Virus record (IMG/VR): IMGVR_UViG_2713896789_000020
Origin: a virus
Lineage: Duplodnaviria > Heunggongvirae > Uroviricota > Caudoviricetes
Strand: one strand, 5' to 3'
DNA: 16,256 nucleotides
Below, one piece after another: positions 1 through 13,809 of this stretch (positions within the stretch are counted from its first letter, which is position 1; each line of letters begins with the position of its first letter). The notes below the pieces were generated by a model. That model saw nothing but the letters and a program-made list of their open reading frames with translations. It made no database searches and was not told where the DNA came from. A program made the position numbers and the translations under genes.

Positions 1-1284
1 TTACTTCTTCGCCTCTGCAACCACTTTACTACCCACGCCGCGGTTATTGTATTCCCACATGCGGTTGTAGTTAGTGTCATTCAGATTGCGCTGTATTTCG
101 TCGTTATCATCTACGCTGCCGGTATTACCCGCAAACGGACGATTAGAGATCACCGCATCGGCCCACGGTTTAGCCGTGTTAAAACCTTCGTTGATGGCGC
201 TATCACGGATCACCACCTGACCGTTGGTATTGGCATCAACATCCAGCGAGCGGCCCAGTTGCGCCACACCATCACCGAAAGCATTGAAACGGCTGTTTAC
301 GGCGAGGAAACCGTAGTAAATGTTGGACAGCGTAGCCGGTGCAAACACATACGCTTCTTGCTGAGTACGTGAGTTCACCACGCGGAATTCGGTGTTATCG
401 AACACCACTGCGCCGCGACCAGAAACGATATCCACATCCCCTTCAATGTAGCTGTTGGTCACCAGCGTACGCGGCTGACGATTTGTTTCCAGACGGTTCT
501 GCACACCGCTGTTGGTGACAAAGAAGGTGTTCTGACGACCGAGAATGTTAACGTTGTTAATCTGTACCTGGTCACCATCAGTACGCAGTGCCACCGCCGG
601 ATGGTTACCTGCATCTACGCTATCGCCCAGCGTGTTTTCGATGGTCAGATTTTGCAGTTGCAGGCCATTGTTTTGTGACCAGAAGACCGCAGAGCAGAGA
701 ACACCGATACTGTCGCTGCGTTTGCTCTGGCAGCTATCGTACATATACCACGCTGGTTTACCTGGCATATATTTGCCGCGCGGGTTGACGTCGTGACGCC
801 AGTCGGCAGGGCTCATGCCACCATCAAGGGAAAGCCCAATCTTCACATCAATCGGTTTTTCACCTGTACCGTACAGAGTAATTCCACCCGGAGCGGCAGG
901 GACATATACCGTTCCCTGATACTCACCAGGCATCACGGCAATATACTGGCGCTTGTTGGTACGCTTGATAATTGCCGCATCTACCGCCGCCTGAATCGTG
1001 GTATGCGTTACACCTTGAGTGCCCGCCGGGCCGACAACAAAGTCAGGTTGCGCAGGCAGGGTAATCGGGGAAGGATTCCACGCTGCAGCACCTGGTGTCA
1101 GGGATGCAAAATAGTGTTGAGCATCGAAATTCTGCGCTTCTTTTGCCGACAGAATCGGGCGAGAAGAGGTACCAGGCGCGGTTTGATCAGAAGGACGTTG
1201 ATCGGGCGGGGTTGAGCTACAGGCGGTCAGCGTCACGCCAAAAGCCAATGCCAGCGCCAGACGGGAAACTGAAAATGTGTTCAC
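1..1284 (-). CDS. ybhC: YbhC-like outer-membrane lipoprotein (pectinesterase / carbohydrate-esterase family); host gene flanking attB-lambda
   Basis: Complete 427-aa ORF with lipoprotein-type signal peptide (…LTACSS); recognised from the translation as the E. coli gene adjacent to the lambda attachment site; identity from recall, not searched. Confidence 0.85.
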   Translation of the reverse strand: MNTFSVSRLALALAFGVTLTACSSTPPDQRPSDQTAPGTSSRPILSAKEAQNFDAQHYFASLTPGAAAWNPSPITLPAQPDFVVGPAGTQGVTHTTIQAAVDAAIIKRTNKRQYIAVMPGEYQGTVYVPAAPGGITLYGTGEKPIDVKIGLSLDGGMSPADWRHDVNPRGKYMPGKPAWYMYDSCQSKRSDSIGVLCSAVFWSQNNGLQLQNLTIENTLGDSVDAGNHPAVALRTDGDQVQINNVNILGRQNTFFVTNSGVQNRLETNRQPRTLVTNSYIEGDVDIVSGRGAVVFDNTEFRVVNSRTQQEAYVFAPATLSNIYYGFLAVNSRFNAFGDGVAQLGRSLDVDANTNGQVVIRDSAINEGFNTAKPWADAVISNRPFAGNTGSVDDNDEIQRNLNDTNYNRMWEYNNRGVGSKVVAEAKK

Positions 1285-1322: not shown

Positions 1323-1425
1323 TGAAGCCTGCTTTTTTATACTAAGTTGGCATTATAAAAAAGCATTGCTTATCAATTTGTTGCAACGAACAGGTCACTA
1401 TCAGTCAAAATAAAATCATTATTTG
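1323..1425. other. attL: attL (B-O-P'): lambda att core GCTTTTTTATACTAA at 1331-1345, followed by P' arm with IHF-like site (about 1366-1378, tatcaatttgttg) and three arm-type Int sites (about 1392-1421, aggtcactat / cagtcaaaat / aaaatcatta)
   Basis: Exact 15-bp lambda core seen directly; downstream arm matches lambda P' arm as recalled; int stop codon lies inside the P' arm as in lambda. Confidence 0.88.
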
Positions 1426-2489
1426 ATTTCAATTTTGTCCCACTCCCTGCCTCTGTCATCACGATACTGTGATGCCATGGTGTCCGACTTATGCCCGAGA
1501 AGATGTTGAGCAAATTTATCGCTTATCTGCTTCTCATAGAGTCTTGCAGACAAACTGCGCAACTCGTGAAAGGTTGGCGGATCCCCTTCGAAGGAGAGAC
1601 CTGATGCTTTTCGTGCGCGCATAAAATACCTTGATACTGTGCCGGATGAAAGCGGTTCACGACGAGTAGATGCAATTATGGTTTCTCCGCCAAGAATCTT
1701 TTTGCATTTATCAAGTGTTTCCTTCATTGATATCCCGAGAGCATCAACATGCAATGTTGTTGGGATGGCAATTTTTACGCCTGTTTTGCTTTGCTCGACA
1801 TAAAGATATCCATCTACGATATCAGACCACTTCATTTCGCATAAATCACCAACTCGCTGCCCGGTAACAACAGCCAGTTCCATTGCAAGTCTAAGCCAAC
1901 ATGGTGATGATTCTGCTGCTTGATAAATTTTCAGGTATTCGTCAGCCGTAAGTCTTGATCTCCTTACCTCTGATTTTGCAGCGCGAGTGGCTGCGACCGG
2001 GTTTGTTGTTATATGGCCTTCAGCCATAGCCTCTCGGAATGCATCGCTCAGTGTTGATCTGATTAACTTGGCTGATGCCGCCTTTCCCTCGTCTATGTAT
2101 CCATTGAGCATTGCCGCAATTTCTTTTGTGGTGATGTCTTCAAGTGGAGCATCAGGCAGACCCCTCCTTATTGCTTTAATTTTGCTCATGTAATTTATGA
2201 GTGTCTTCTGCTTGATTCCTCTGCTGGCCAGGATTTTTTCGTAGCGATCAAGCCATGAATGTAACGTAACGGAATTATCACTGTTGATTCTCGCTGTCAG
2301 AGGCTTGTGTTTGTGTCCTGAAAATAACTCAATGTTGGCCTGTATAGCTTCAGTGATTGCGATTCGCCTGTCTCGGCCTAATCCAAACTCTTTACCCGTC
2401 CTTGGGTCCCTGTAGCAGTAATATCCATTGTTTCTTATATAAAGGTTAGGGGGTAAATCCCGGCGCTCATGACTTCGCCTTCTTCCCAT
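1419..2489 (-). CDS. int: Lambda integrase (tyrosine recombinase)
   Basis: 356-aa ORF; translation matches lambda Int essentially along its length (MGRRRSHERRDLPPNLYIRNNGYYCYRDPRTGKEFGLGRD…, C-terminal …HLLGHKSDTMASQYRDDRGREWDKIEIK). Confidence 0.97.
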   Translation of the reverse strand: MGRRRSHERRDLPPNLYIRNNGYYCYRDPRTGKEFGLGRDRRIAITEAIQANIELFSGHKHKPLTARINSDNSVTLHSWLDRYEKILASRGIKQKTLINYMSKIKAIRRGLPDAPLEDITTKEIAAMLNGYIDEGKAASAKLIRSTLSDAFREAMAEGHITTNPVAATRAAKSEVRRSRLTADEYLKIYQAAESSPCWLRLAMELAVVTGQRVGDLCEMKWSDIVDGYLYVEQSKTGVKIAIPTTLHVDALGISMKETLDKCKKILGGETIIASTRREPLSSGTVSRYFMRARKASGLSFEGDPPTFHELRSLSARLYEKQISDKFAQHLLGHKSDTMASQYRDDRGREWDKIEIK

Positions 2490-2974: not shown

Positions 2975-3403
2975 TTATTCAATATCTATTCCTGTAATAT
3001 CTTTTATCTTTTTCCTTGCAAAGCCTTTTGCTAGTGATTTTGAAACACTTATTAGTGTACTAATTCCCTCATCCTTAAAGTTTGTTTTTATAGTTTGCCA
3101 GACCTCCTTTTGACGCAAGTCAGCAATAAAATCATGCCCTCTTGCTGTCAACCTCAGTGGTACTTCGATCCAACTATATCCAACACCTTCCCCTAACTCG
3201 TTGGACATTATATGACCGAACCCAGGTTTTCCATCAACCCTGACTATTAATTCGTAGTCGCATAATAATCGCATATGGAAAATAAAATTTTGGTCATATC
3301 TATTAAAGCCATTATCCTCTAGTTCACTAAGCATCGTGTCAGGGCCATGAGTTTTTTCGAATGCGATAAGTAGATCTTTTAGATATTGCTGGTCTAATTT
3401 CAT
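2975..3403 (-). CDS. Hypothetical cytoplasmic protein, 142 aa, no recognisable family; AT-rich cargo gene
   Basis: Complete ORF with GGAGG Shine-Dalgarno 5 nt upstream of ATG (3403); strongly AT-rich codon usage unlike flanking lambda genes; no signal peptide or TM segment evident. Confidence 0.7.
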   Translation of the reverse strand: MKLDQQYLKDLLIAFEKTHGPDTMLSELEDNGFNRYDQNFIFHMRLLCDYELIVRVDGKPGFGHIMSNELGEGVGYSWIEVPLRLTARGHDFIADLRQKEVWQTIKTNFKDEGISTLISVSKSLAKGFARKKIKDITGIDIE

Positions 3404-4063: not shown

Positions 4064-4678
4064 TTATCTAAAAGTCTTTCCACTTTTAACGTTTAGGTAT
4101 ATTCTGTTCGACAACGTCATTCCTCCGCAATATGTGAAATAGATGTTTTTCCCCTTATTGCTTGATGCCATCCACCCTCCGATTTCCTTAAAGTCGCTTT
4201 CCGTGCAGACCCCTTCGTTTATTAACTTCCTAGCTGCCGAAGAAAACTCTTTTTTGTATATACGGTAGTCATCAGATCCTTTGATTAAAGTATCATCTCC
4301 GCTCGCATTTTCAGCAGGATCTGATGGCCTTTCACTGCTAAGATCACTAAGTTTAACCCATTCTGAAAACTTGCCATTGACGATTCCGTTTTTTCTTGTG
4401 CAGGATTTATTACCTTCTTTAATATATTCGCTTTCCCCTCCCACACATGAGGCTGAATATGGCTCAGTTATACGAACCCATTCACCTTTTTTTTCTAGAA
4501 AATCTACGCCTTCCCTGAAAAATAGTTTCCCAGCCACTCCACATTTACTTGAAGGGCAGGTATGTCTTTCCGTTCGATCAACAACAACCCAAAGTCTTGA
4601 TTCATTTTTTGCCATTGCCGATGGTATTTGAGATGAGACAATTAACGTAAGCCCTAAAATTAGTATTGATTTTTTCAT
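4064..4678 (-). CDS. Secreted/periplasmic hypothetical protein, 204 aa, with Sec signal peptide, 6 cysteines, and a possible SH3b-like N-terminal domain; AT-rich moron-like gene
   Basis: N-terminus MKKSILILGLTLIVSSQIPSAMA- is a typical signal peptide; AAGGA Shine-Dalgarno 8 nt upstream; segment RLWVVVDRTERHTCPSSKCGVAGKLFFREGVDFLEKKGEWVRI resembles bacterial SH3 pattern (tentative). Confidence 0.75.
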   Translation of the reverse strand: MKKSILILGLTLIVSSQIPSAMAKNESRLWVVVDRTERHTCPSSKCGVAGKLFFREGVDFLEKKGEWVRITEPYSASCVGGESEYIKEGNKSCTRKNGIVNGKFSEWVKLSDLSSERPSDPAENASGDDTLIKGSDDYRIYKKEFSSAARKLINEGVCTESDFKEIGGWMASSNKGKNIYFTYCGGMTLSNRIYLNVKSGKTFR

Positions 4679-5228: not shown

Positions 5229-5382
5229 TTCGAACCTCTCTGTTTACTGATAAGTTCCAGATCCTCCTGGCAACTTGCACAAGTCCGACAACCCTGAACG
5301 GCCAGGCGTCTTCGTTCATCTATNNNNNNNNNNNNNNNNNNNNNNNNNNNNNNNNNNNNNNNNNNNNNNNNNNNNNNNNNNN
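5225..5382 (-). CDS. TraR/DksA-type C4 zinc-finger protein (lambda orf73-like); 5' part hidden by the N-run, so the start is undefined
   Basis: C-terminal readable portion …IDERRRLAVQGCRTCASCQEDLELISKQRGSK carries the second CxxC of a TraR-like zinc finger; upstream part masked by Ns at 5324-5382. Confidence 0.6.
5324..5382. other. Run of 59 N (masked or unresolved assembly gap)
   Basis: Literal n characters in the sequence. Confidence 1.
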
Positions 5383-5950: not shown

Positions 5951-6105
5951 ACAGCCCCTCGTTTATTATTTATCTCCTCAGCCAGCCGCTGTGCTTTCAG
6001 TGGATTTCGGATAACAGAAAGGCCGGGAAATACCCAGCCTCGCTTTGTAACGGAGTAGACGAAAGTGATTGCGCCTACCCGGATATTATCGTGAGGATGC
6101 GTCAT
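5923..6105 (-). CDS. Small hypothetical protein, 60 aa (lambda orf60a-like), start overlapping exo stop
   Basis: [29 protein letters not shown]…; ATG at 6105 immediately follows the exo stop (6102-6104). Confidence 0.55.
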
Positions 6106-6743
6106 CGCCATTGCTCCCCAAATACAAAACCAATTTCAGCCAGTGCCTCGTCCATTTTTTCGATGAACACCGGCACCATCTCGTCAAAACTCGCCATGTA
6201 CTTTTCATCCCGCTCAACCACGACATAATGCAGTCCTTCACGCTTCATACGCGGGTCATAGTTGGCAAAGTACCAGGCATCTTTTCGTGTCACCCACATG
6301 CTGTACTGCACCTGGGCCATGTAAGCCGACTTTATGGCCTCGAAACCACCGAGCCGGAACTTCATGAAATCCCGGGAGGTAAACGGGCATTTCAGCTCAA
6401 GGCCATTGCCGTCACTGCATAAACCATCGGGAGAGCAGGCGGTGCGCATACTTTCGTCGCGATAGATGATCGGGGATTCAGTAACATTCACGCCGGAAGT
6501 GAATTCAAACAGGGTTCTGGCGTCGTTCTCGTACTGTTTTCCCCATGCCAGCGCCTTAGCATTAACTTCCGGAGCCACACCGGTGCAAACCTCAGCCAGC
6601 AGGGTGTGGAAGTAGGACATTTTCATGTCAGGCCACTTCTTTCCTGAGCGGGGCTTGGCTATCACGTTGTGAACTTCTGAAGCGGTGATGACGCCGAGCC
6701 GTAATTTGTGCCATGCATCATCCCCCTGTTCGACAGCTCTCAC
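6102..6743 (-). CDS. exo: Lambda exonuclease (Red-alpha), 5'-truncated: lacks the native first ~13 codons and ATG; the frame upstream reads …NHPICVT before a stop, resembling a Bet fragment
   Basis: 213 aa from an internal GTG match lambda Exo from residue ~14 to the C-terminus (…GFVFGEQWR); in-frame stop at 6783-6785 upstream; no ATG. Confidence 0.9.
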
Positions 6744-6932
6744 GTCGATCCCGGTAACGCAGATCGGATGATTACCGGTTCGCTACCAGGGAAGAACGGG
6801 AAGGAAAGGTGAGCACGAATCTGATTTTCAAGGAGTGTCGCCAGAGTGCCGCGATGAAGCGGGTGTTGGCATTTTATCGCGGCAATTTTCAATAGACTAT
6901 GTACATAAAAATATCATTTTTTTAATACATGT

Positions 6933-7139
6933 CTAATTATTGGACGAAATTGGTTTTTGCTTTGGTTTAGTTAGCCTAGCAATCAAGCCAGAGGCAATAA
7001 TGATGATCCAAGCAATTTGATGCAATGCTACTCCAATATAAGAACCTTTATAGATAATAAAGGCATAGATCGCTAGAAACGAAATAAATATCCATAACGA
7101 AAGTTGATAAATTTTGGCGCGCATATTTAATCCAATCAA
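6933..7139 (-). CDS. Small putative inner-membrane protein, 68 aa, two predicted TM helices; AT-rich, unknown function
   Basis: MIGLNMRAKIYQLSLWIFISFLAIYAFIIYKGSYIGVALHQIAWIIIIASGLIARLTKPKQKPISSNN; hydrophobic stretches and basic C-terminus; divergent from the lipoprotein operon. Confidence 0.45.
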   Translation of the reverse strand: MIGLNMRAKIYQLSLWIFISFLAIYAFIIYKGSYIGVALHQIAWIIIIASGLIARLTKPKQKPISSNN

Positions 7140-7380
7140 TCAGAAAGACGAGTAATCATAGAGGTACTATCACCCGGGTAACTATTGCTATTATGAACGG
7201 ATAGGATAGAGGCTTCAATAACATATGCATCAAGTATGATGGAATATGTAGGTGAAAATGACTTGTGTCAAATTTGTGGAAATGAGTACCATGTTTCTCT
7301 GAAATTGATGTCGTTAATGGCTAGTGATAGTGAACTTTTTTACTTTATAATTCCTTTGGTTATAACAATAAGGTAAATTT

Positions 7381-7941
7381 ATGAAGAAGATAATATTATT
7401 AGCCATGATTATTGGTTCTTTAACAGGTTGCGCTAGTGTGCCACCATTGAATTTTTCAACACCTAACGTGGGAGTTAGCCAGAAAAAAATAGATGCTGAA
7501 ATTAAGTCATTAACGGTATCACTTGCTCGTCCAGATGAGCAGAAAGGGGATATCACTGCTGGTATGGAGGCTATAACTCCAATTTGGCGTGAATCTTTGC
7601 AGGAAGCACTCGACCGAATGACTATTTTTCGTGATAGTTCACCAAATACGGTTAGCTTAAATGTTAAAGTGTTGGCTCTTGACGTTCCTGCTTTTGGTGT
7701 TTCAATGACAACTAAAGCAATTGCAAGGTATGAAATAATCAACCGTGCGAATGGTGATATTATATATACGCAGGATATTGAGTCTACCGGTACTGTTCCA
7801 GCCAGTTACGCATTCTACGGTATTGTTCGAGCACGCGAATCTGTTAATCGCGCGGTGCAAAACAACATAACGCAGTTCTTGCAAGCATTAGAAAGTGTTG
7901 ATCTTTCTCGTCCAATGTTTCCTGTTAGGGTAGCTAAATGA
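7381..7941 (+). CDS. Lipoprotein of unknown function, 186 aa (lipobox LTGC)
   Basis: MKKIILLAMIIGSLTGCASV… signal peptide plus lipobox; AAGGT Shine-Dalgarno; stop overlaps the next gene start (ATGA at 7938-7941); AT-rich. Confidence 0.8.
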   Translation: MKKIILLAMIIGSLTGCASVPPLNFSTPNVGVSQKKIDAEIKSLTVSLARPDEQKGDITAGMEAITPIWRESLQEALDRMTIFRDSSPNTVSLNVKVLALDVPAFGVSMTTKAIARYEIINRANGDIIYTQDIESTGTVPASYAFYGIVRARESVNRAVQNNITQFLQALESVDLSRPMFPVRVAK

Positions 7942-8390
7942 AGCGATTATTCGTAATTGCTCCACTCTTAGTGTTGGTTGGATGCGCACAAAATATATCG
8001 CCAAATAGTTATTCTGTTGGCTCTGTGGGCATGGTTAATCGAACTATCGCTGGTACAGTTATTAGTGCTAGGGGGGTTGATATCAGTGGGACTTCCGCGT
8101 TAGGCGGGACTGCTGGGGCTGCCGTGGGGGCAACCGCTGGTTCTGCGCTTGGTGGGGGAGTTCGTTCTAATATCGTTGGTGCCGTTGGTGGTGCAGTCAT
8201 TGGTGGTATTGCCGGGGCAGCAATCGAATCTTCAGCAACAAAACAAACAGGCATGGAATATGTTGTCGAAACTGAGAATGGGAATTTAATGACCATTGTT
8301 CAAGGCAAAGATCCGTTATTTACTCAAGGAAGTAAGGTCCTTGTTTTATACGGAAACCCTTCTCGCATAATAACAGACCCGCGTCACTAA
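7938..8390 (+). CDS. SlyB-like outer-membrane lipoprotein with glycine-zipper domain, 150 aa (lipobox LVGC)
   Basis: Signal peptide plus lipobox, then Gly/Ala zipper region (GGTAGAAVGATAGSALGGGVRSNIVGAVGGAVIGGIAGAAI) and a C-terminal module resembling SlyB/Pcp (…MEYVVETENGNLMTIVQGKDPLFTQGSKVLVLYGNPSRI); from recall of SlyB. Confidence 0.85.
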   Translation: MKRLFVIAPLLVLVGCAQNISPNSYSVGSVGMVNRTIAGTVISARGVDISGTSALGGTAGAAVGATAGSALGGGVRSNIVGAVGGAVIGGIAGAAIESSATKQTGMEYVVETENGNLMTIVQGKDPLFTQGSKVLVLYGNPSRIITDPRH

Positions 8391-8398
8391 CATACCTT

Positions 8399-8427
8399 TT
8401 GATTTTGTAAAATCAATTCGTAATAAT
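8399..8427 (+). promoter_or_regulatory. Candidate sigma70 promoter (TTGATT, 17-bp spacer, AATAAT) upstream of the nin-Q operon, followed by a 10-bp-stem hairpin at 8432-8461
   Basis: Hexamers and spacing read directly; no experimental support. Confidence 0.3.
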
Positions 8428-8580
8428 AAAGTCATCGGAGCTTGAACAACTCCGGTGACTTCTGCGCTAAACGGGGACGTTTATGCGCACATACAATCCA
8501 AACTCTCTTCTCCCTTCACAGATGCAGAAATGCACCTGCGATTTTTTGCATCCAGCGTCTGACCTCTGCGGAGGTGAAGC

Positions 8581-9036
8581 GTGAACCTACCACAAGATGG
8601 CATCAAACTGCATCGCGGTAACTTCACCGCTATCGGCCAGCAGATCCAGCCTTATCTGGAGGACGGAAAATGCTTTCGCATGGTGCTTAAACCGTGGCGT
8701 GAGAAACGCAGTCTTTCCCAGAATGCACTCAGCCACATGTGGTACAGCGAAATCAGTGAATACCTCATCAGCAGGGGGAAATCGTTCGCTACCGCAGCAT
8801 GGGTAAAAGATGCTCTCAAACACACATACCTCGGTTATGAAACCAAGGACCTGGTTGATGTCGTAACCGGCGAAATCACTACTATCCAGTCGTTACGCCA
8901 TACCTCCGATCTTGATACCGGAGAGATGTATATCTTCCTGTGTAAGGTTGAAGCCTGGGCGGTGAATATTGGCTGCCACCTGACTATTCCGCAGAGCTGC
9001 GAGTTCCAGCAGCTCCGCGACAAACAGGAGGCGTAA
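8581..9036 (+). CDS. ybcN: NinB-family protein (DLP12 YbcN-like), 151 aa, GTG start
   Basis: [55 protein letters not shown]… matches YbcN/NinB family as recalled; GGAGG Shine-Dalgarno upstream of GTG. Confidence 0.85.
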
Positions 9037-9206
9037 TGGCTACACCGCTTATTCGTGTCATGAACGGACACATCTACAGAGTACCAAATCGTCGTAAGCG
9101 TAAACCGGAGCTGAAGCCTTCCGAAATACCAACACTGCTCGGATATACCGCCAGCCTGGTTGATAAAAAATGGTTGCGACTGGCAGCAAGGAGGAGTCAT
9201 GGCTGA
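9036..9206 (+). CDS. ninE: NinE-family small protein, 56 aa
   Basis: Own translation [56 protein letters not shown]; start overlaps ybcN stop (TAATG); not in ORF track (short). Confidence 0.8.
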   Translation: MATPLIRVMNGHIYRVPNRRKRKPELKPSEIPTLLGYTASLVDKKWLRLAARRSHG

Positions 9207-9489
9207 TTTGAGAAAAGCAGCGCGTGGTCGGGAATGCCAGGTAAGAATCCCTGGCGTATGTAATGGCAACCCTGAAACGTCTGTACTGGCACATATCCGG
9301 CTGACTGGATTGTGCGGCACCGGTACGAAACCGCCAGACCTGATTGCCACCATTGCATGTTCTGCCTGCCACGACGAAATCGACCGCCGCACACATTTTG
9401 TCGATGCTGCATATGCAAAAGAATGCGCGCTGGAAGGTATGGCGAGAACACAGGTTATCTGGCTGAAAGAGGGGGTTATTAAGGCGTGA
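9199..9489 (+). CDS. ybcO: DLP12 YbcO-like protein (DUF1364, Cys-rich putative nuclease), 96 aa
   Basis: [64 protein letters not shown]…; AGGAGG Shine-Dalgarno 4 nt upstream of ATG 9199; overlaps ninE end. Confidence 0.8.
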
Positions 9490-9848
9490 ATACCTACAGC
9501 ATCACATTACCCTGGCCTCCGAGCAATAATCGCTATTACCGCCATAATCGCGGGCGCACACACATCAGCGCAGAAGGGCAGGCATACCGCGATAACGTCA
9601 CCCGAATCATTAAAAACGCAATGCTGGATATCGGCCTGGCTATGCCAGTGAAAATCCGTATTGAGTGCCACATGCCGGATCGCCGTCGCCGTGACCTGGA
9701 TAATCTGCAAAAAGCCGCTTTTGACGCACTCACCAAAGCAGGTTTCTGGCTGGATGATGCTCAGGTCGTTGATTACCGCGTTGTGAAGATGCCTGTTACC
9801 AAAGGTGGGAGGCTGGAACTGACCATCACCGAAATGGGGAATGAATGA
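9486..9848 (+). CDS. rusA: RusA Holliday-junction resolvase, 120 aa (GTG start overlapping ybcO stop)
   Basis: [103 protein letters not shown]… matches E. coli RusA. Confidence 0.95.
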
Positions 9849-9985
9849 TGTTTGAGTTTAATATGGCAGAACTTCTTCGCCACCGCTGGATGCGCCTGCG
9901 CTTATATCGTTTCCCCAGTTCTGTTTTGACCGATTACCGAATACTGAGGAATTACGCCAAAACCCTGACAGGAGCAGGAGTATGA
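9845..9985 (+). CDS. ylcG: YlcG-like small protein, 46 aa
   Basis: Own translation [46 protein letters not shown]; ATG overlaps rusA stop (ATGA). Confidence 0.7.
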
Positions 9986-10070
9986 AGTCAGAGATAACAA
10001 TCAACTAATACTGTTTTATTGATTTTTGCTTGTAATTGGCGTTCTGGTCTGATTTTTGTGGAGTAAGTTG

Positions 10071-10454
10071 ATGCGTGATATTCAGATGGTTCTTGAGCGT
10101 TGGGGAGCGTGGGCGGCTAATAATCATGAAGATGTGACCTGGTCGTCCATTGCCGCCGGTTATAAGGGATTAATTACTTCAAAAGTAAAATCTCGCCCGC
10201 AATGTTGTGACGATGACGCGATGATCATTTGCGGGTGCATGGCCCGTCTGAAAAAGAACAACAGCGATTTGCACGATTTATTAGTAGATTATTATGTAGT
10301 CGGTATGACATTCATGTCACTGGCAGGTAAGCATTGCTGCTCTGATGGTTATATCGGGAAAAGGTTACAGAAAGCTGAGGGTATAATTGAAGGGATGTTA
10401 ATGGCATTAGATATCCGGTTAGAGATGGATATCGTTGTTAATAACTCTAATTAA
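10071..10454 (+). CDS. quuD: Q-type late antiterminator, DLP12 QuuD / phage 21 Q family, 127 aa
   Basis: [81 protein letters not shown]…; GGAG Shine-Dalgarno upstream of ATG 10071; ORF track lists a longer in-frame extension from 10056. Confidence 0.88.
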
Positions 10455-10487
10455 TATGCCAATTGTTTACTAAAAATTATTAAAAAT

Positions 10488-10505
10488 GGGGCGTTGAGAC
10501 GCCCC
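10488..10505. terminator. GC-rich hairpin (ggggcg ttgaga cgcccc) between quuD and the porin gene, with A/T runs on both sides; possible bidirectional terminator
   Basis: Read directly. Confidence 0.45.
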
Positions 10506-10571
10506 CAAAAATAAAGGGTAATATATAACAGAAGGTTTATATAGTTAGAAGCAAGGTTGTGCTCCTAAAGG

Positions 10572-10627
10572 AAGTGGCTTGAGGGAGCCACTTATATGTT
10601 GGGGAGGCAAAGCCTCCCGCAACATAT
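10572..10627 (-). terminator. Two adjacent hairpins just downstream of the porin stop (8-bp stem at 10572-10593; 15-bp imperfect stem at 10594-10627); probable porin transcript terminator/stabiliser
   Basis: Inverted repeats aagtggct…agccactt and atatgttggggaggc aaa gcctcccgcaacatat read directly. Confidence 0.45.
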
Positions 10628-10642
10628 CTTTTAGTAATCAAA

Positions 10643-11725
10643 TTAGAACTGGTAAACCATACCTACAGCAACGATATCATCGGTAGCAACGCCAGATGCT
10701 TTCGTGAAATCGCTCTTATCAATCAGGTTGATTTTGTAATCAACAAAAGTGGACATATTTTTGTTGAAGTAATAGGTTGCACCTACATCAATATATTCAA
10801 CCAGGTCCTGATCACCCCACGCACCCAAGTCTTTTCCTTTAGATTGCAGGTAAGCAACGGACGGACGCAGACCGAAGTCGAACTGATATTGTGCAACTAC
10901 TTCGAAGTTTTGTGCTTTGTTGGCAATATGGTTATTACCAAAAACAGTCATGTTCTGGGTTTCAGAATAGGTGGTAGCCAGATAGATGTTGTTCGCATCA
11001 TATTTCAGACCAGCTGCCCATACTTCAGCATTTTGACCAGATGCATTCAGGCTGTTGTTACCGTAGATAACCTGATTATTAGTGCGGTCAGATTTAGCAT
11101 AGGTTGCACCTACACCGAATCCTTCATACTCATAAGTAGTGGAGAAACCGAAACCATCACCATTAGCTTCAGTTACGTCAGTGCGGTCATTTTTACCCTG
11201 ATACTGAGCAGCAAAGTTCAGACCATCAACCAGACCAAAGAAGTCATTGTTACGATAAGTTGCAACACCTGTGGTGCGACCAGTCATGAATACATCTGTT
11301 TGGGTCCAGGTATCGCCACCGAATTCTGGCAGAACGTCGGTCCATGCACCAATATCGTATGCTACACCGTAGTTACGGCCATAATCGATGGAGCCGTAGT
11401 CACCGAATTTCAGGCCAGCGAAGGCAAGACGGGTTTTATCTTTGGAGGAACCTTGAGATTCAGCGCGGTTGCCTTTGAATTCATATTCCCACTGACCGAA
11501 ACCAGTCAGTTGATCGTTGATTTGGGTTTCACCTTTGAAGCCAAGACGGGCATAAGTAGTATCACCATCATCTGCATCATTAGAGGAGAAGTAGTGCTTA
11601 GCATTAACTTTCCCGTACAGATCCAGCTTGTTACTGTCTTTATTATAAATTTCAGCTGCCTGAGCAGACATCGCCATCAGTACTGATGCAGCTACAGCAG
11701 AAATTGCCACTGTTAATTTTTTCAT
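10643..11725 (-). CDS. nmpC: Prophage-encoded general porin of the OmpC/OmpF/PhoE family (NmpC/Lc-like), 360 aa, apparently intact
   Basis: Signal peptide [23 protein letters not shown]; porin signature regions (LDLYGKV…, …[14 protein letters not shown]…), C-terminal …VAVGMVYQF; position between Q and the lysis genes as in DLP12/PA-2. Confidence 0.93.
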
Positions 11726-12152
11726 CGTGAGCCCTTTTTTTTGAACTATTATTAAAAAATGATGTCACTGCGCGATAAATATTCATCTAATCAATGTGAT
11801 TATTTCAAGATGTAAGTTTTGGTTTCTCATTTGATTTGTGAAGTAGATCTCTATTTTTATCTGAACTTTTTCTATCGAATCCTATTCATGGCTCTTGGCT
11901 GAATAAAAATAAATCTATTAGCCAATTTATATTAATGGCTGTTATTTATAAGTGCTCTATAATTTGAAGATTCAATTTAAACCAGCTAAAAATAACGCTG
12001 GAAATTATTTGTTGGTTATTTGTTGAGATTTGCTTATGTATTTGTAGTGGTGTTTTCAATACTCGGTAGCATTCTCGCAAATATCATTTAGTGGTTTACG
12101 TACGTAAAAAATTGGTTATGCTGTTAAGAGTGGTTACTTCGTCACACAGCTT

Positions 12153-12186
12153 AAACCCGCCGTCGAGCGGGTTTTTCCATTTTTTG
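12153..12186 (+). terminator. Intrinsic terminator upstream of the holin gene (stem aaacccgc/gcgggttt, loop cgtcga, then T-runs); candidate tR'-equivalent that Q-modified polymerase reads through
   Basis: Hairpin plus T-runs read directly; lambda-like placement between the expected late promoter region and S. Confidence 0.55.
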
Positions 12187-12313
12187 AGTCTCGATATTAG
12201 CTGATAACCCAATACCTGAGTTATTCACTGACTCCGAGTCTGTTACGTTTCTGCTTTTTTGCGATACGTTGTATTCCCTCAATTTACACCCGCTTTGTCT
12301 GCGAGGTGGGGTT

Positions 12314-12529
12314 ATGAAATCCATGGATAAGTTAACAACGGGTGTCGCCTATGGCACCTCAGCAGGTAGTGCCGGTTACTGGTTTTTACAGCTGCTCGAT
12401 AAAGTCACGCCCTCACAGTGGGCAGCAATAGGTGTGCTGGGTAGCCTGGTATTTGGCCTGCTGACGTACCTGACAAACCTTTATTTCAAGATTAAAGAAG
12501 ATAAGCGCAAGGCTGCGAGAGGTGAATAA
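12314..12529 (+). CDS. S: Class II holin, phage 21 S21-type pinholin, 71 aa, with dual-start motif MKSMDK
   Basis: [71 protein letters not shown] matches S21/EssD; two in-frame ATGs (12314 and 12323). Confidence 0.9.
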
Positions 12530-13026
12530 TGCCTCCATCATTACGAAAAGCCGTTGCTGCTGCTATTGGTGGCGGAGCAATTGCTATAGCATCAGTGTTA
12601 ATTACTGGCCCAAGTGGTAACGATGGTCTGGAAGGTGTCAGCTACGTACCATACAAAGATATCGTTGGCGTATGGACTGTATGTCACGGACACACCGGAA
12701 AAGACATCATGCTCGGTAAAACGTATACCAAAGCAGAATGCAAAGCACTCTTGAATAAAGACCTTGCCACTGTCGCCAGACAAATTAACCCGTACATCAA
12801 AGTCGATATACCGGAAACAACGCGCGGCGCTCTTTACTCATTCGTTTACAACGTGGGTGCTGGCAATTTCAGAACATCGACGCTTCTTCGCAAAATAAAC
12901 CAGGGCGATATCAAAGGCGCATGTGATCAGCTACGTCGCTGGACATATGCTGGCGGTAAGCAATGGAAAGGTCTCATGACTCGTCGTGAGATTGAGCGTG
13001 AAATCTGTTTGTGGGGTCAGCAATGA
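12529..13026 (+). CDS. R: SAR endolysin (signal-anchor-release lysozyme, R21/RrrD-like), 165 aa
   Basis: N-terminal Gly/Ala-rich SAR segment ([23 protein letters not shown]) then lysozyme-like domain; start overlaps holin stop (TAATG). Confidence 0.9.
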
Positions 13027-13484
13027 ACAGAGTAACCGCGATTATCTCCGCTCTGGTTATCTGCATCATCGTCTACCTGTCATGGGCTGTTAATCATTAC
13101 CGTGATAACGCCATTACCTACAAAGCCCAGCGCGACAAAAATGCCAGAGAACTGAAGCTGGCGAACGCGGCAATTACTGACATGCAGATGCGTCAGCGTG
13201 ATGTTGCTGCGCTCGATGCAAAATACACGAAGGAGTTAGCTGATGCGAAAGCTGAAAATGATGCTCTGCGTGATGATGTTGCCGCTGGTCGTCGTCGGTT
13301 GCACATCAAAGCAGTCTGTCAGTCAGTGCGTGAAGCCACCACCGCCTCCGGCGTGGATAATGCAGCCTCCCCCCGACTGGCAGACACCGCTGAACGGGAT
13401 TATTTCACCCTCAGAGAGAGGCTGATCACTATGCAAAAACAACTGGAAGGAACCCAGAAGTATATTAATGAGCAGTGCAGATAG
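13023..13484 (+). CDS. Rz: Rz i-spanin
   Basis: [21 protein letters not shown]… N-terminal TM segment then coiled-coil periplasmic domain; ATG overlaps endolysin stop (ATGA). Confidence 0.85.
13243..13425 (+). CDS. Rz1: Rz1 o-spanin lipoprotein, embedded in the +1 frame of Rz
   Basis: [24 protein letters not shown]… lipobox VVGC and proline-rich mature part ([15 protein letters not shown]), entirely inside Rz. Confidence 0.8.
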
Positions 13485-13515
13485 AGTTGCCCATATCGAT
13501 GGGCAACTCATGCAA

Positions 13516-13809
13516 TTATTGTGAGCAATACACACGCGCTTCCAGCGGAGTATAAATGCCTAAAGTAATAAAACCGAGCAATCCATTTACGAATGTTTGC
13601 TGGGTTTCTGTTTTAACAACATTTTCTGCGCCGCCACAAATTTTGGCTGCATCGACAGTTTTCTTCTGCCCAATTCCAGAAACGAAGAAATGATGGGTGA
13701 TGGTTTCCTTTGGTGCTACTGCTGCCGGTTTGTTTTGAACAGTAAACGTCTGTTGAGCACATCCTGTAATAAGCAGGGCCAGCGCAGTAGCGAGTAGCAT
13801 TTTTTTCAT
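13516..13809 (-). CDS. bor: Bor serum-resistance outer-membrane lipoprotein, 97 aa
   Basis: MKKMLLATALALLITGCAQQTFTVQNKPAAVAPKETITHHFFVSGIGQKKTVDAAKICGGAENVVKTETQQTFVNGLLGFITLGIYTPLEARVYCSQ matches lambda Bor. Confidence 0.95.
   Translation of the reverse strand: MKKMLLATALALLITGCAQQTFTVQNKPAAVAPKETITHHFFVSGIGQKKTVDAAKICGGAENVVKTETQQTFVNGLLGFITLGIYTPLEARVYCSQ

Follow-up and report, generated by a model that had tools for sequence, protein, structure and literature searches.

Under stress, the outer-membrane lipoprotein SlyB forms rings around lipid patches and around proteins such as BamA, LptD and porins; this protection of the outer membrane is a recent finding, and in 2025 the same mode of action was proposed for another protein, YfgH (bioRxiv 10.64898/2025.12.22.696046). 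Here we describe two adjoining genes, open reading frames A and B (ORF-A and ORF-B), in a stretch of 16,256 nucleotides from IMG/VR virus record IMGVR_UViG_2713896789_000020, referred to here as the window, which is a defective lambdoid prophage of Escherichia coli adjoining ybhC. Judged by its sequence, ORF-B is a full-length homologue of SlyB. Prophage envelope cargo and SlyB-type lipoproteins are both known kinds; what is new is that a branch of SlyB is mobile and linked to a partner whose family is undescribed. A first-pass annotation, made from the letters of the window, had reported two overlapping lipoprotein genes with signal peptides and lipoboxes, the second of them SlyB-like, and both statements hold for the following features.

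7381–7941, plus strand: ORF-A, predicted outer-membrane lipoprotein of 186 residues (PHROG 12521, RefSeq WP_000720581.1)
7938–7941, plus strand: ATGA overlap of the ORF-A stop and the ORF-B start, coupling their translation
7938–8390, plus strand: ORF-B, predicted SlyB-type glycine-zipper outer-membrane lipoprotein of 150 residues (PHROG 13877, RefSeq WP_000825400.1)

Both frames are present in the program-made list of open reading frames. The N terminus of ORF-A, MKKIILLAMIIGSLTG-C, and that of ORF-B, MKRLFVIAPLLVLVG-C-AQN, each comprise a basic segment, a hydrophobic core and a lipobox (LTGC and LVGC, respectively), with Ala at position +2. By the rules of the Lol pathway, Ala at +2, as opposed to the inner-membrane retention signal Asp, directs a lipoprotein to the outer membrane, and outer-membrane sorting is therefore predicted for both proteins.

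ORF-B and SlyB (PDB 7OJF and 7OJG) agree in length and in architecture, which consists of a lipobox, an N-terminal strand, a glycine-zipper hairpin and a C-terminal β domain. The match extends over the whole chain, with residues 2–149 aligned by phmmer to SlyB residues 3–155 (7OJF chain A, E = 1.3e-14) and 33% full-length identity to K-12 SlyB (BLASTP, E = 7e-13). The G-x3-G/A ladder of G56, G60, G64, G68 and G72 is invariant in an alignment of ORF-B that includes K-12 SlyB; across 23 family members G60 is nearly invariant (at least 90%), and the four other glycines and the lipobox Cys are invariant. In the AlphaFold2 (AF2) model an N-terminal strand is followed by a helical hairpin (residues 56–100, with helices 56–71 and 75–100) and a C-terminal β domain, an order of secondary-structure elements identical to that of SlyB, and the sole significant match of this model among solved structures is 7OJF chain A (Foldseek E of 3e-8, template modelling (TM) score of 0.55–0.59). 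A database search found 581 relatives at E of 1e-3 or better. The ORF-B subfamily is distinct and tightly conserved, with 63–76% identity inside it and approximately 33% to SlyB.

Unlike SlyB, which is encoded by a core gene, ORF-B is accessory and mobile, and it is nearly always coupled to a partner gene of a kind that the annotated K-12 slyB locus lacks. The SlyB paralogue YfgH is also followed by a second gene, yfgI, but its product belongs to DUF5384 and bears no relation to ORF-A, which rules out yfgH–yfgI as an analogous pair of the core genome. The ORF-B subfamily represents a third, divergent SlyB branch besides SlyB and YfgH. As a side observation, K-12 YfgH (L104 3793–4308) scores below threshold against the Pfam model of TraT (28.1 against 31 bits, over the hairpin region), which hints at a relationship between the membrane helices of TraT and glycine-zipper hairpins.

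ORF-A has no such described relative. A database search yielded 512 relatives at E of 1e-3 or better, and a profile run against 1.84 billion representative proteins yielded 931 at E ≤ 1e-3, including 95 at E ≤ 1e-30. ORF-A itself has no Pfam match at E of 0.1 or better and no match in NCBIfam, 79 diverse relatives have no Pfam match apart from the lipid-attachment motif, and nothing below E of 0.2 was found when its profile was compared with PDB sequences; PHROG 12521 and PHROG 13877 are both annotated ‘unknown function’. On the strength of these searches ORF-A belongs to an undescribed family covered by neither Pfam nor NCBIfam, in line with the first-pass annotation, which had recognised no family for it.

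The AF2 model of ORF-A (predicted local distance difference test (pLDDT) score of 83.7) adopts a two-helix, antiparallel-sheet α/β lipoprotein fold of the LptE/PqiC/PelC class. Its best structural matches are PqiC-family (DUF330) proteins, a family represented by PDB 2IQI and 8Q2C, and LptE; the viral structure library BFVD gave nothing convincing. The likeness is confined to the fold, as ORF-A has no match to these families at the level of sequence and its partner is SlyB-type: the cognate partner genes lptD, pqiAB and pelB, as well as MCE genes, are absent among the neighbours in nine annotated contexts. Invariant in the family are an extended segment after the lipid anchor, PPLNFSVPNVG, and an ARYE strand, and helix 2 carries a conserved polar Arg/Glu/Asn face (R150, R152, E153, R157, Q160 and N162). 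Because PPLNFSVPNVG is conserved without predicted secondary structure, it suggests a binding interface.

Two names in circulation for the ORF-A family lack support. Older NCBI and UniRef records call its members ‘UDP-N-acetylglucosamine acyltransferase’ (P0001, P0003, P0021, P0041, P0057, P0075 and P0114), which is taken as an annotation error because ORF-A is a small secreted lipoprotein without an acyltransferase domain. Newer RefSeq records call ORF-A a ‘YajG family lipoprotein’. Both ORF-A and YajG are lipoproteins of approximately 190 residues, but yajG adjoins ampG and has no glycine-zipper partner. The YajG model PF03923 gives 176.8 bits for E. coli YajG and detects neither ORF-A nor any of the 79 family members at E ≤ 0.01, and NCBIfam returns no YajG match for ORF-A. 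Profile–profile alignment with hhalign relates the two over 52–53 columns covering the signal peptide, lipobox and first strand (probability of 88–94%), or over 119 columns at 73% when the shallow profile is used. The YajG homologue search gave only sequences of at least 85% identity, which left the YajG profile shallow. Membership of the YajG family (PF03923/COG3056) is thus unsupported by four tests (Pfam and three profile–profile alignments); a very remote common origin within the fold class is possible.

In four distant relatives of ORF-A (P0248, P0302, P0322 and P0350) the lipobox Cys is missing and the C terminus is extended by approximately 60 to more than 400 residues; the extensions of P0302 and P0322 are long and rich in Lys, Glu and Gln. 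Natural fusions of A with B were sought among long relatives (P0248, P0250, P0302 and P0322), none of which has a B-like part or a Pfam domain; the Pfam scan of P0248, P0302 and P0322 gave no domain.

The two genes form a conserved unit well beyond this locus, as a survey of their co-occurrence proposed in the first-pass annotation bears out. Sampling one genome per species gave 55 ORF-A loci from Alpha-, Beta- and Gammaproteobacteria (Xanthomonadales, Burkholderiales, Rhodocyclales-type bacteria, Enterobacterales and several Alphaproteobacteria), and in 50 of them an ORF-B-type gene directly follows ORF-A. The same order is seen in 33 of 37 viral contigs; a search with ORF-B recovered the same contigs, the B subfamily occurring in viral contigs only alongside A. 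Of 61 loci outside E. coli, 55 have an overlap between the A stop codon and the B start codon, of 4 nt in 48 and of 1 nt in 7. Pairwise protein distances of A and B are closely correlated (Mantel r of 0.90, a value reached in none of 2,000 permutations). Comparison of the window with Klebsiella oxytoca and a second phage gave non-synonymous (pN) values of 0.10–0.21 and synonymous (pS) values of 0.75–0.87, with synonymous sites saturated, and both genes are under strong purifying selection. With hundreds of homologues and pN well below pS, ORF-A and ORF-B are genuine genes rather than chance open reading frames.

Neighbour clustering of the 55 loci revealed no third conserved neighbour, and the cassettes share neither flanks nor a common mobile-element boundary, nucleotide similarity ending at the coding region. 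Coordinates of loci with ORF-A only are L043 8001–10049, L100 8001–8851 and L101 7971–9042; in Photorhabdus a tandem repeat array follows such an ORF-A, and in L100 a 95-residue secreted protein (PHROG 21025) comes next, near Q and ant genes.

Most copies belong to Xanthomonadales, Burkholderiales and Enterobacterales, where they reside in chromosomes or in integrative islands, a distribution that does not support a phage-specific module. In Klebsiella the pair is found in a variable stretch of the chromosome that also holds umuDC and stress genes, and in Stenotrophomonas it is flanked by a TonB-dependent receptor on one side and ispH–lspA–ileS on the other. In Xanthomonas it adjoins pgaABCD, in Bordetella toxin–antitoxin and transposase genes, in Edaphovirga a P4-type integrase island, and in a genome of Alcaligenaceae a serine recombinase. 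Given these varied contexts, the pair is a self-contained, sporadic and horizontally mobile two-gene cassette, and the non-phage settings point to a cellular rather than a phage-specific role. This goes some of the way towards the converse idea, that a host chromosomal operon of known function had simply been captured, although no known function attaches to the chromosomal copies either. One assembly labelled as a Gram-positive actinomycete, Nocardiopsis yanglingensis (L026, JBJNRH010000001.1), holds the pair together with neighbours common to Stenotrophomonas loci and is probably contaminated or mislabelled.

Phages have also taken up the cassette more than once. In another lambdoid siphovirus of 53% GC content (L088 4665–15154) the pair, at 73–74% identity, lies between tape-measure and minor tail genes, and different phages acquired it independently at different cargo positions. 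The literature searched contains no mention of the pair, of a phage-borne SlyB homologue or of a SlyB partner protein, and papers on phages of enterohaemorrhagic E. coli, on the SdiA regulon and on TraT evolution do not mention the pair, which agrees with its having been called undescribed.

In E. coli the pair occupies the right part of an insert of approximately 1.5 kb (window 6896 to ~8396) between ren and ylcH/ybcN, with these further features.

6896–7380, no strand: AT-rich leader of 485 bp, the left part of the insert, beginning directly after the 3′ end of ren (mapped from the intact prophage L001)
6933–7139, minus strand: 68-residue ORF with two hydrophobic segments, from the program-made list
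7324–7351, plus strand: candidate σ70 promoter (GTGATA, 16-nt spacer, TATAAT), 30 nt upstream of the ORF-A start codon
8391–8399, no strand: right edge of the insert; from ~8396–8399 onward the sequence is common DLP12-type backbone upstream of ylcH/ybcN

Leader, ORF-A and ORF-B are found in exactly the same 280 of 5,426 complete E. coli genomes; the pair is always chromosomal there, at least 99.8% identical, and full length in 279. NCTC strains are among the natural carriers. The right edge is sharp, as window 8391–8600 matches 2,971 genomes from query position 6–9 onward, against 280 for the pair. GC content is 39.8% for the insert, made up of 32% for the leader, 40.5% for ORF-A and 47% for ORF-B, compared with 48.6% in the nin region; the block described earlier as AT-rich is so chiefly in its leader and in ORF-A. 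In K-12 DLP12 the same interval holds emrE–ylcJ–ybcK–ybcL–ybcM in place of the pair (L105 4249–8368), and the ren–ylcH/ybcN interval serves as a slot for alternative cargo.

The insert is discrete, absent from related prophages and unlike the backbone in base composition, features typical of cargo inserts (‘morons’). Likewise bor, lom, the Lc/NmpC porin and cor are small inserts of deviating GC content between backbone genes, are absent from sister prophages and encode outer-membrane products, but the pair differs in being a coupled two-gene unit that is also common outside phages, and Bor, Lom and Cor have no sequence relation to ORF-A or ORF-B. The only deposited phage with the E. coli pair is PhiR30_1, and no plasmid carries it, the sole trace being a fragment of 26% identity in a Vibrio plasmid.

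RefSeq has no annotated feature in the leader. Its 68-residue ORF, which may or may not be a gene, is annotated in PhiR30_1 only and matched no family in Pfam, NCBIfam, PHROG or PADLOC searches. The candidate promoter agrees with the consensus at 10 of 12 positions, sites of this quality being no more frequent in the region than expected from shuffled sequence, and is only a lead. Terminator-like sites detected in the region lie in the backbone, none in the insert.

The first-pass annotation had placed the pair where the immunity and replication module should be. Intact prophages and PhiR30_1 possess cI, cro, O and P and carry the pair as well, between ren and ybcN/ninB, which rules it out as a substitute for that module. 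The immunity and replication genes are missing from the window because of a separate deletion, next to an exo gene that is truncated as first described.

6102–6743, minus strand: YqaJ/lambda-type exonuclease (exo), truncated
6760–6762: deletion junction outside the module, between the truncated exo and the final 134 nt of ren

Comparison with L001 puts the loss at 8.1 kb, covering bet, gam, kil, O, P and the immunity genes. Just 3 of the 5,426 genomes share this exact junction, and approximately ten further E. coli genomes have a variant that retains a RecT fragment. In this prophage without pR, immunity or replication genes the pair is intact and 100% identical.

We tentatively favour the view that the pair is lysogenic-conversion cargo that stabilises the outer membrane, as a SlyB-type assembly in which ORF-B has a partner of its own; the proposed mechanism is modelled on that of SlyB. 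The glycine-zipper hairpin of ORF-B would insert into the outer membrane, and ORF-B would oligomerise into SlyB-like rings corralling lipid patches and outer-membrane proteins. ORF-A, produced in a fixed ratio with ORF-B, would be the partner dedicated to it at the periplasmic side. There it would dock onto the ring or else bind a ligand, an anionic lipid or lipopolysaccharide (LPS), by means of the conserved, unstructured PPLNFSVPNVG and PMFP segments and the polar face of helix 2. Such an assembly would toughen the outer membrane against chelators, detergents, bile, antimicrobial peptides and serum, and may benefit the lysogen or island carrier as Bor benefits lambda lysogens.

If the two proteins cooperate in this way, outer-membrane stabilisation would be obtainable as a ready-made cassette, which would matter for how the approximately 5% of sequenced E. 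coli that carry it tolerate bile, detergents, cationic peptides and serum. The SlyB mechanism may then accept accessory subunits, and the family widely mislabelled as an acyltransferase would gain a correct assignment.

Several observations weigh against this proposal. The glycine-zipper match that a profile search had been expected to give for ORF-B stays below the Pfam gathering cut-offs (PF05433/PF13488; 21.1 against 24.2 bits and 16.9 against 25); many close homologues of ORF-B have precomputed PF13488 or PF05433 matches. The ORF-B model is of moderate confidence (pLDDT of 64.7). Physical contact between A and B is suggested by their genomic linkage, and A occurs without B in a few loci (Photorhabdus, Budvicia, Massilia and four viral contigs). 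As the promoter is a bare consensus match, expression in lysogens is predicted at best. E. coli already possesses SlyB and YfgH, so any added benefit of the pair is uncertain, and the near-identity of the E. coli copies could reflect recent spread rather than selection.

The main rival reading, unlikely but live, is that the pair forms a surface or periplasmic barrier against superinfecting phages or conjugative pili, in which outer-membrane receptor proteins might for instance be enclosed or immobilised, as a two-chain counterpart of TraT or in the manner of Cor/Llp. Its presence at different positions in two unrelated lambdoid phages (ren–ybcN in E. coli, tape-measure/minor tail in L088) and in or beside integrative elements in many other cases suits such a device. 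So does the build of TraT, an F-plasmid surface-exclusion and serum-resistance lipoprotein (PDB 9E2V and 9FS5) in which an LptE-like core and two transmembrane helices form a lipid-plugged ring (PMC12658005); A and B would supply both parts, in two chains where TraT has one. This likeness is architectural, as the pair has no detectable sequence relationship to TraT (no match to PF05818), and ORF-B compares with TraT non-significantly in Foldseek (E of 0.27). The extracellular face of a protein enclosed in a SlyB-type ring stays exposed, which also speaks against exclusion, as do the ‘unknown function’ labels of both PHROG families. PADLOC defence models match neither ORF-A, ORF-B nor the leader ORF, and copies beside housekeeping or metabolic genes, such as ispH–lspA–ileS in Stenotrophomonas and pgaABCD in Xanthomonas, suit a general envelope role better; together these make us lean towards that role over exclusion.

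A more specific structural version, in which ORF-A as the LptE-like core and ORF-B as the helical hairpin build a hetero-oligomeric outer-membrane ring equivalent to a two-chain TraT, seems quite unlikely. If true, phages and genomic islands would be trading SlyB-type nanodomain formation as a mobile trait, either a portable outer-membrane armour or a surface-exclusion device, and ORF-B would be the first SlyB-family protein to require a dedicated partner.

The structural matches of ORF-A to PqiC-family proteins and LptE raise the improbable alternative that it is an LptE/PqiC-like core docking on a lipid transport machine of the host, located in the outer membrane or spanning the envelope, with ORF-B only anchoring or organising it in lipid or LPS handling. 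SlyB and YajG co-purify with LptDE (PMC12065857), and the conserved helix-2 Arg, Glu and Asn residues, the invariant ARYE strand and the occasional occurrence of ORF-A without ORF-B are compatible with this. The fold, however, is common to many functionally unrelated lipoproteins, among them CsgG, LpoB, HpaA and TraT, ORF-A lacks sequence-level membership of LptE or DUF330, and none of the corresponding transport genes adjoins the pair in the contexts examined.

Distinctly improbable is a factor for host interaction or virulence, conferring resistance to serum, complement or antimicrobial peptides, or adhesion, in animal-associated E. coli, as for bor and lom. The prophage also contains bor and a porin gene, the E. 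coli carriers are isolates from humans, livestock, birds and pets, and SlyB and YajG have been reported to be partly surface-exposed (PMC12065857). Most family members nevertheless come from bacteria of soil, water and plants (Stenotrophomonas, Xanthomonas, Luteimonas and Comamonadaceae), and high conservation across such differing lifestyles speaks for a target intrinsic to the envelope and against a ligand of the host; the reading moreover overlaps with the favoured stabilising assembly instead of excluding it. That the cassette is passenger DNA without a role in E. coli, hitch-hiking in a successful prophage lineage, is very improbable: recent clonal spread would fit the at least 99.8% identity of all 280 copies, and the promoter evidence is weak and the surrounding prophage decaying, but all copies except one are full length, the pair is intact even beside the 8-kb loss, purifying selection is strong across the family and phages acquired it independently at different positions.

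The remainder of the window contains the following features.

1–1284, minus strand: pectinesterase-like lipoprotein
1419–2489, minus strand: lambda-type integrase
2975–3403, minus strand: DUF2513 protein, in AT-rich DNA between xis and ea-like genes
4064–4678, minus strand: 204-residue protein with a signal peptide, in the same AT-rich DNA
5324–5382: run of 59 N (assembly gap) in the early-left region, between an Ead/Ea22-like gene and neighbouring small ORFs
8581–9036: ybcN/ninB, DLP12-type right arm
9486–9848: rusA, DLP12-type right arm
10056–10454: Q, DLP12-type right arm
10643–11725, minus strand: OmpC/NmpC-type porin
13243–13425, plus strand: Rz1 lipoprotein, part of the holin–lysozyme–Rz/Rz1 lysis genes
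13516–13809, minus strand: bor

The right arm also includes ybcV. The genes at 4064–4678, whose product has no Pfam or PADLOC match, and at 2975–3403 may be additional cargo. Five envelope proteins, ORF-A, ORF-B, the porin, Rz1 and Bor, are encoded within positions 7381–13809 of this short, decaying prophage.

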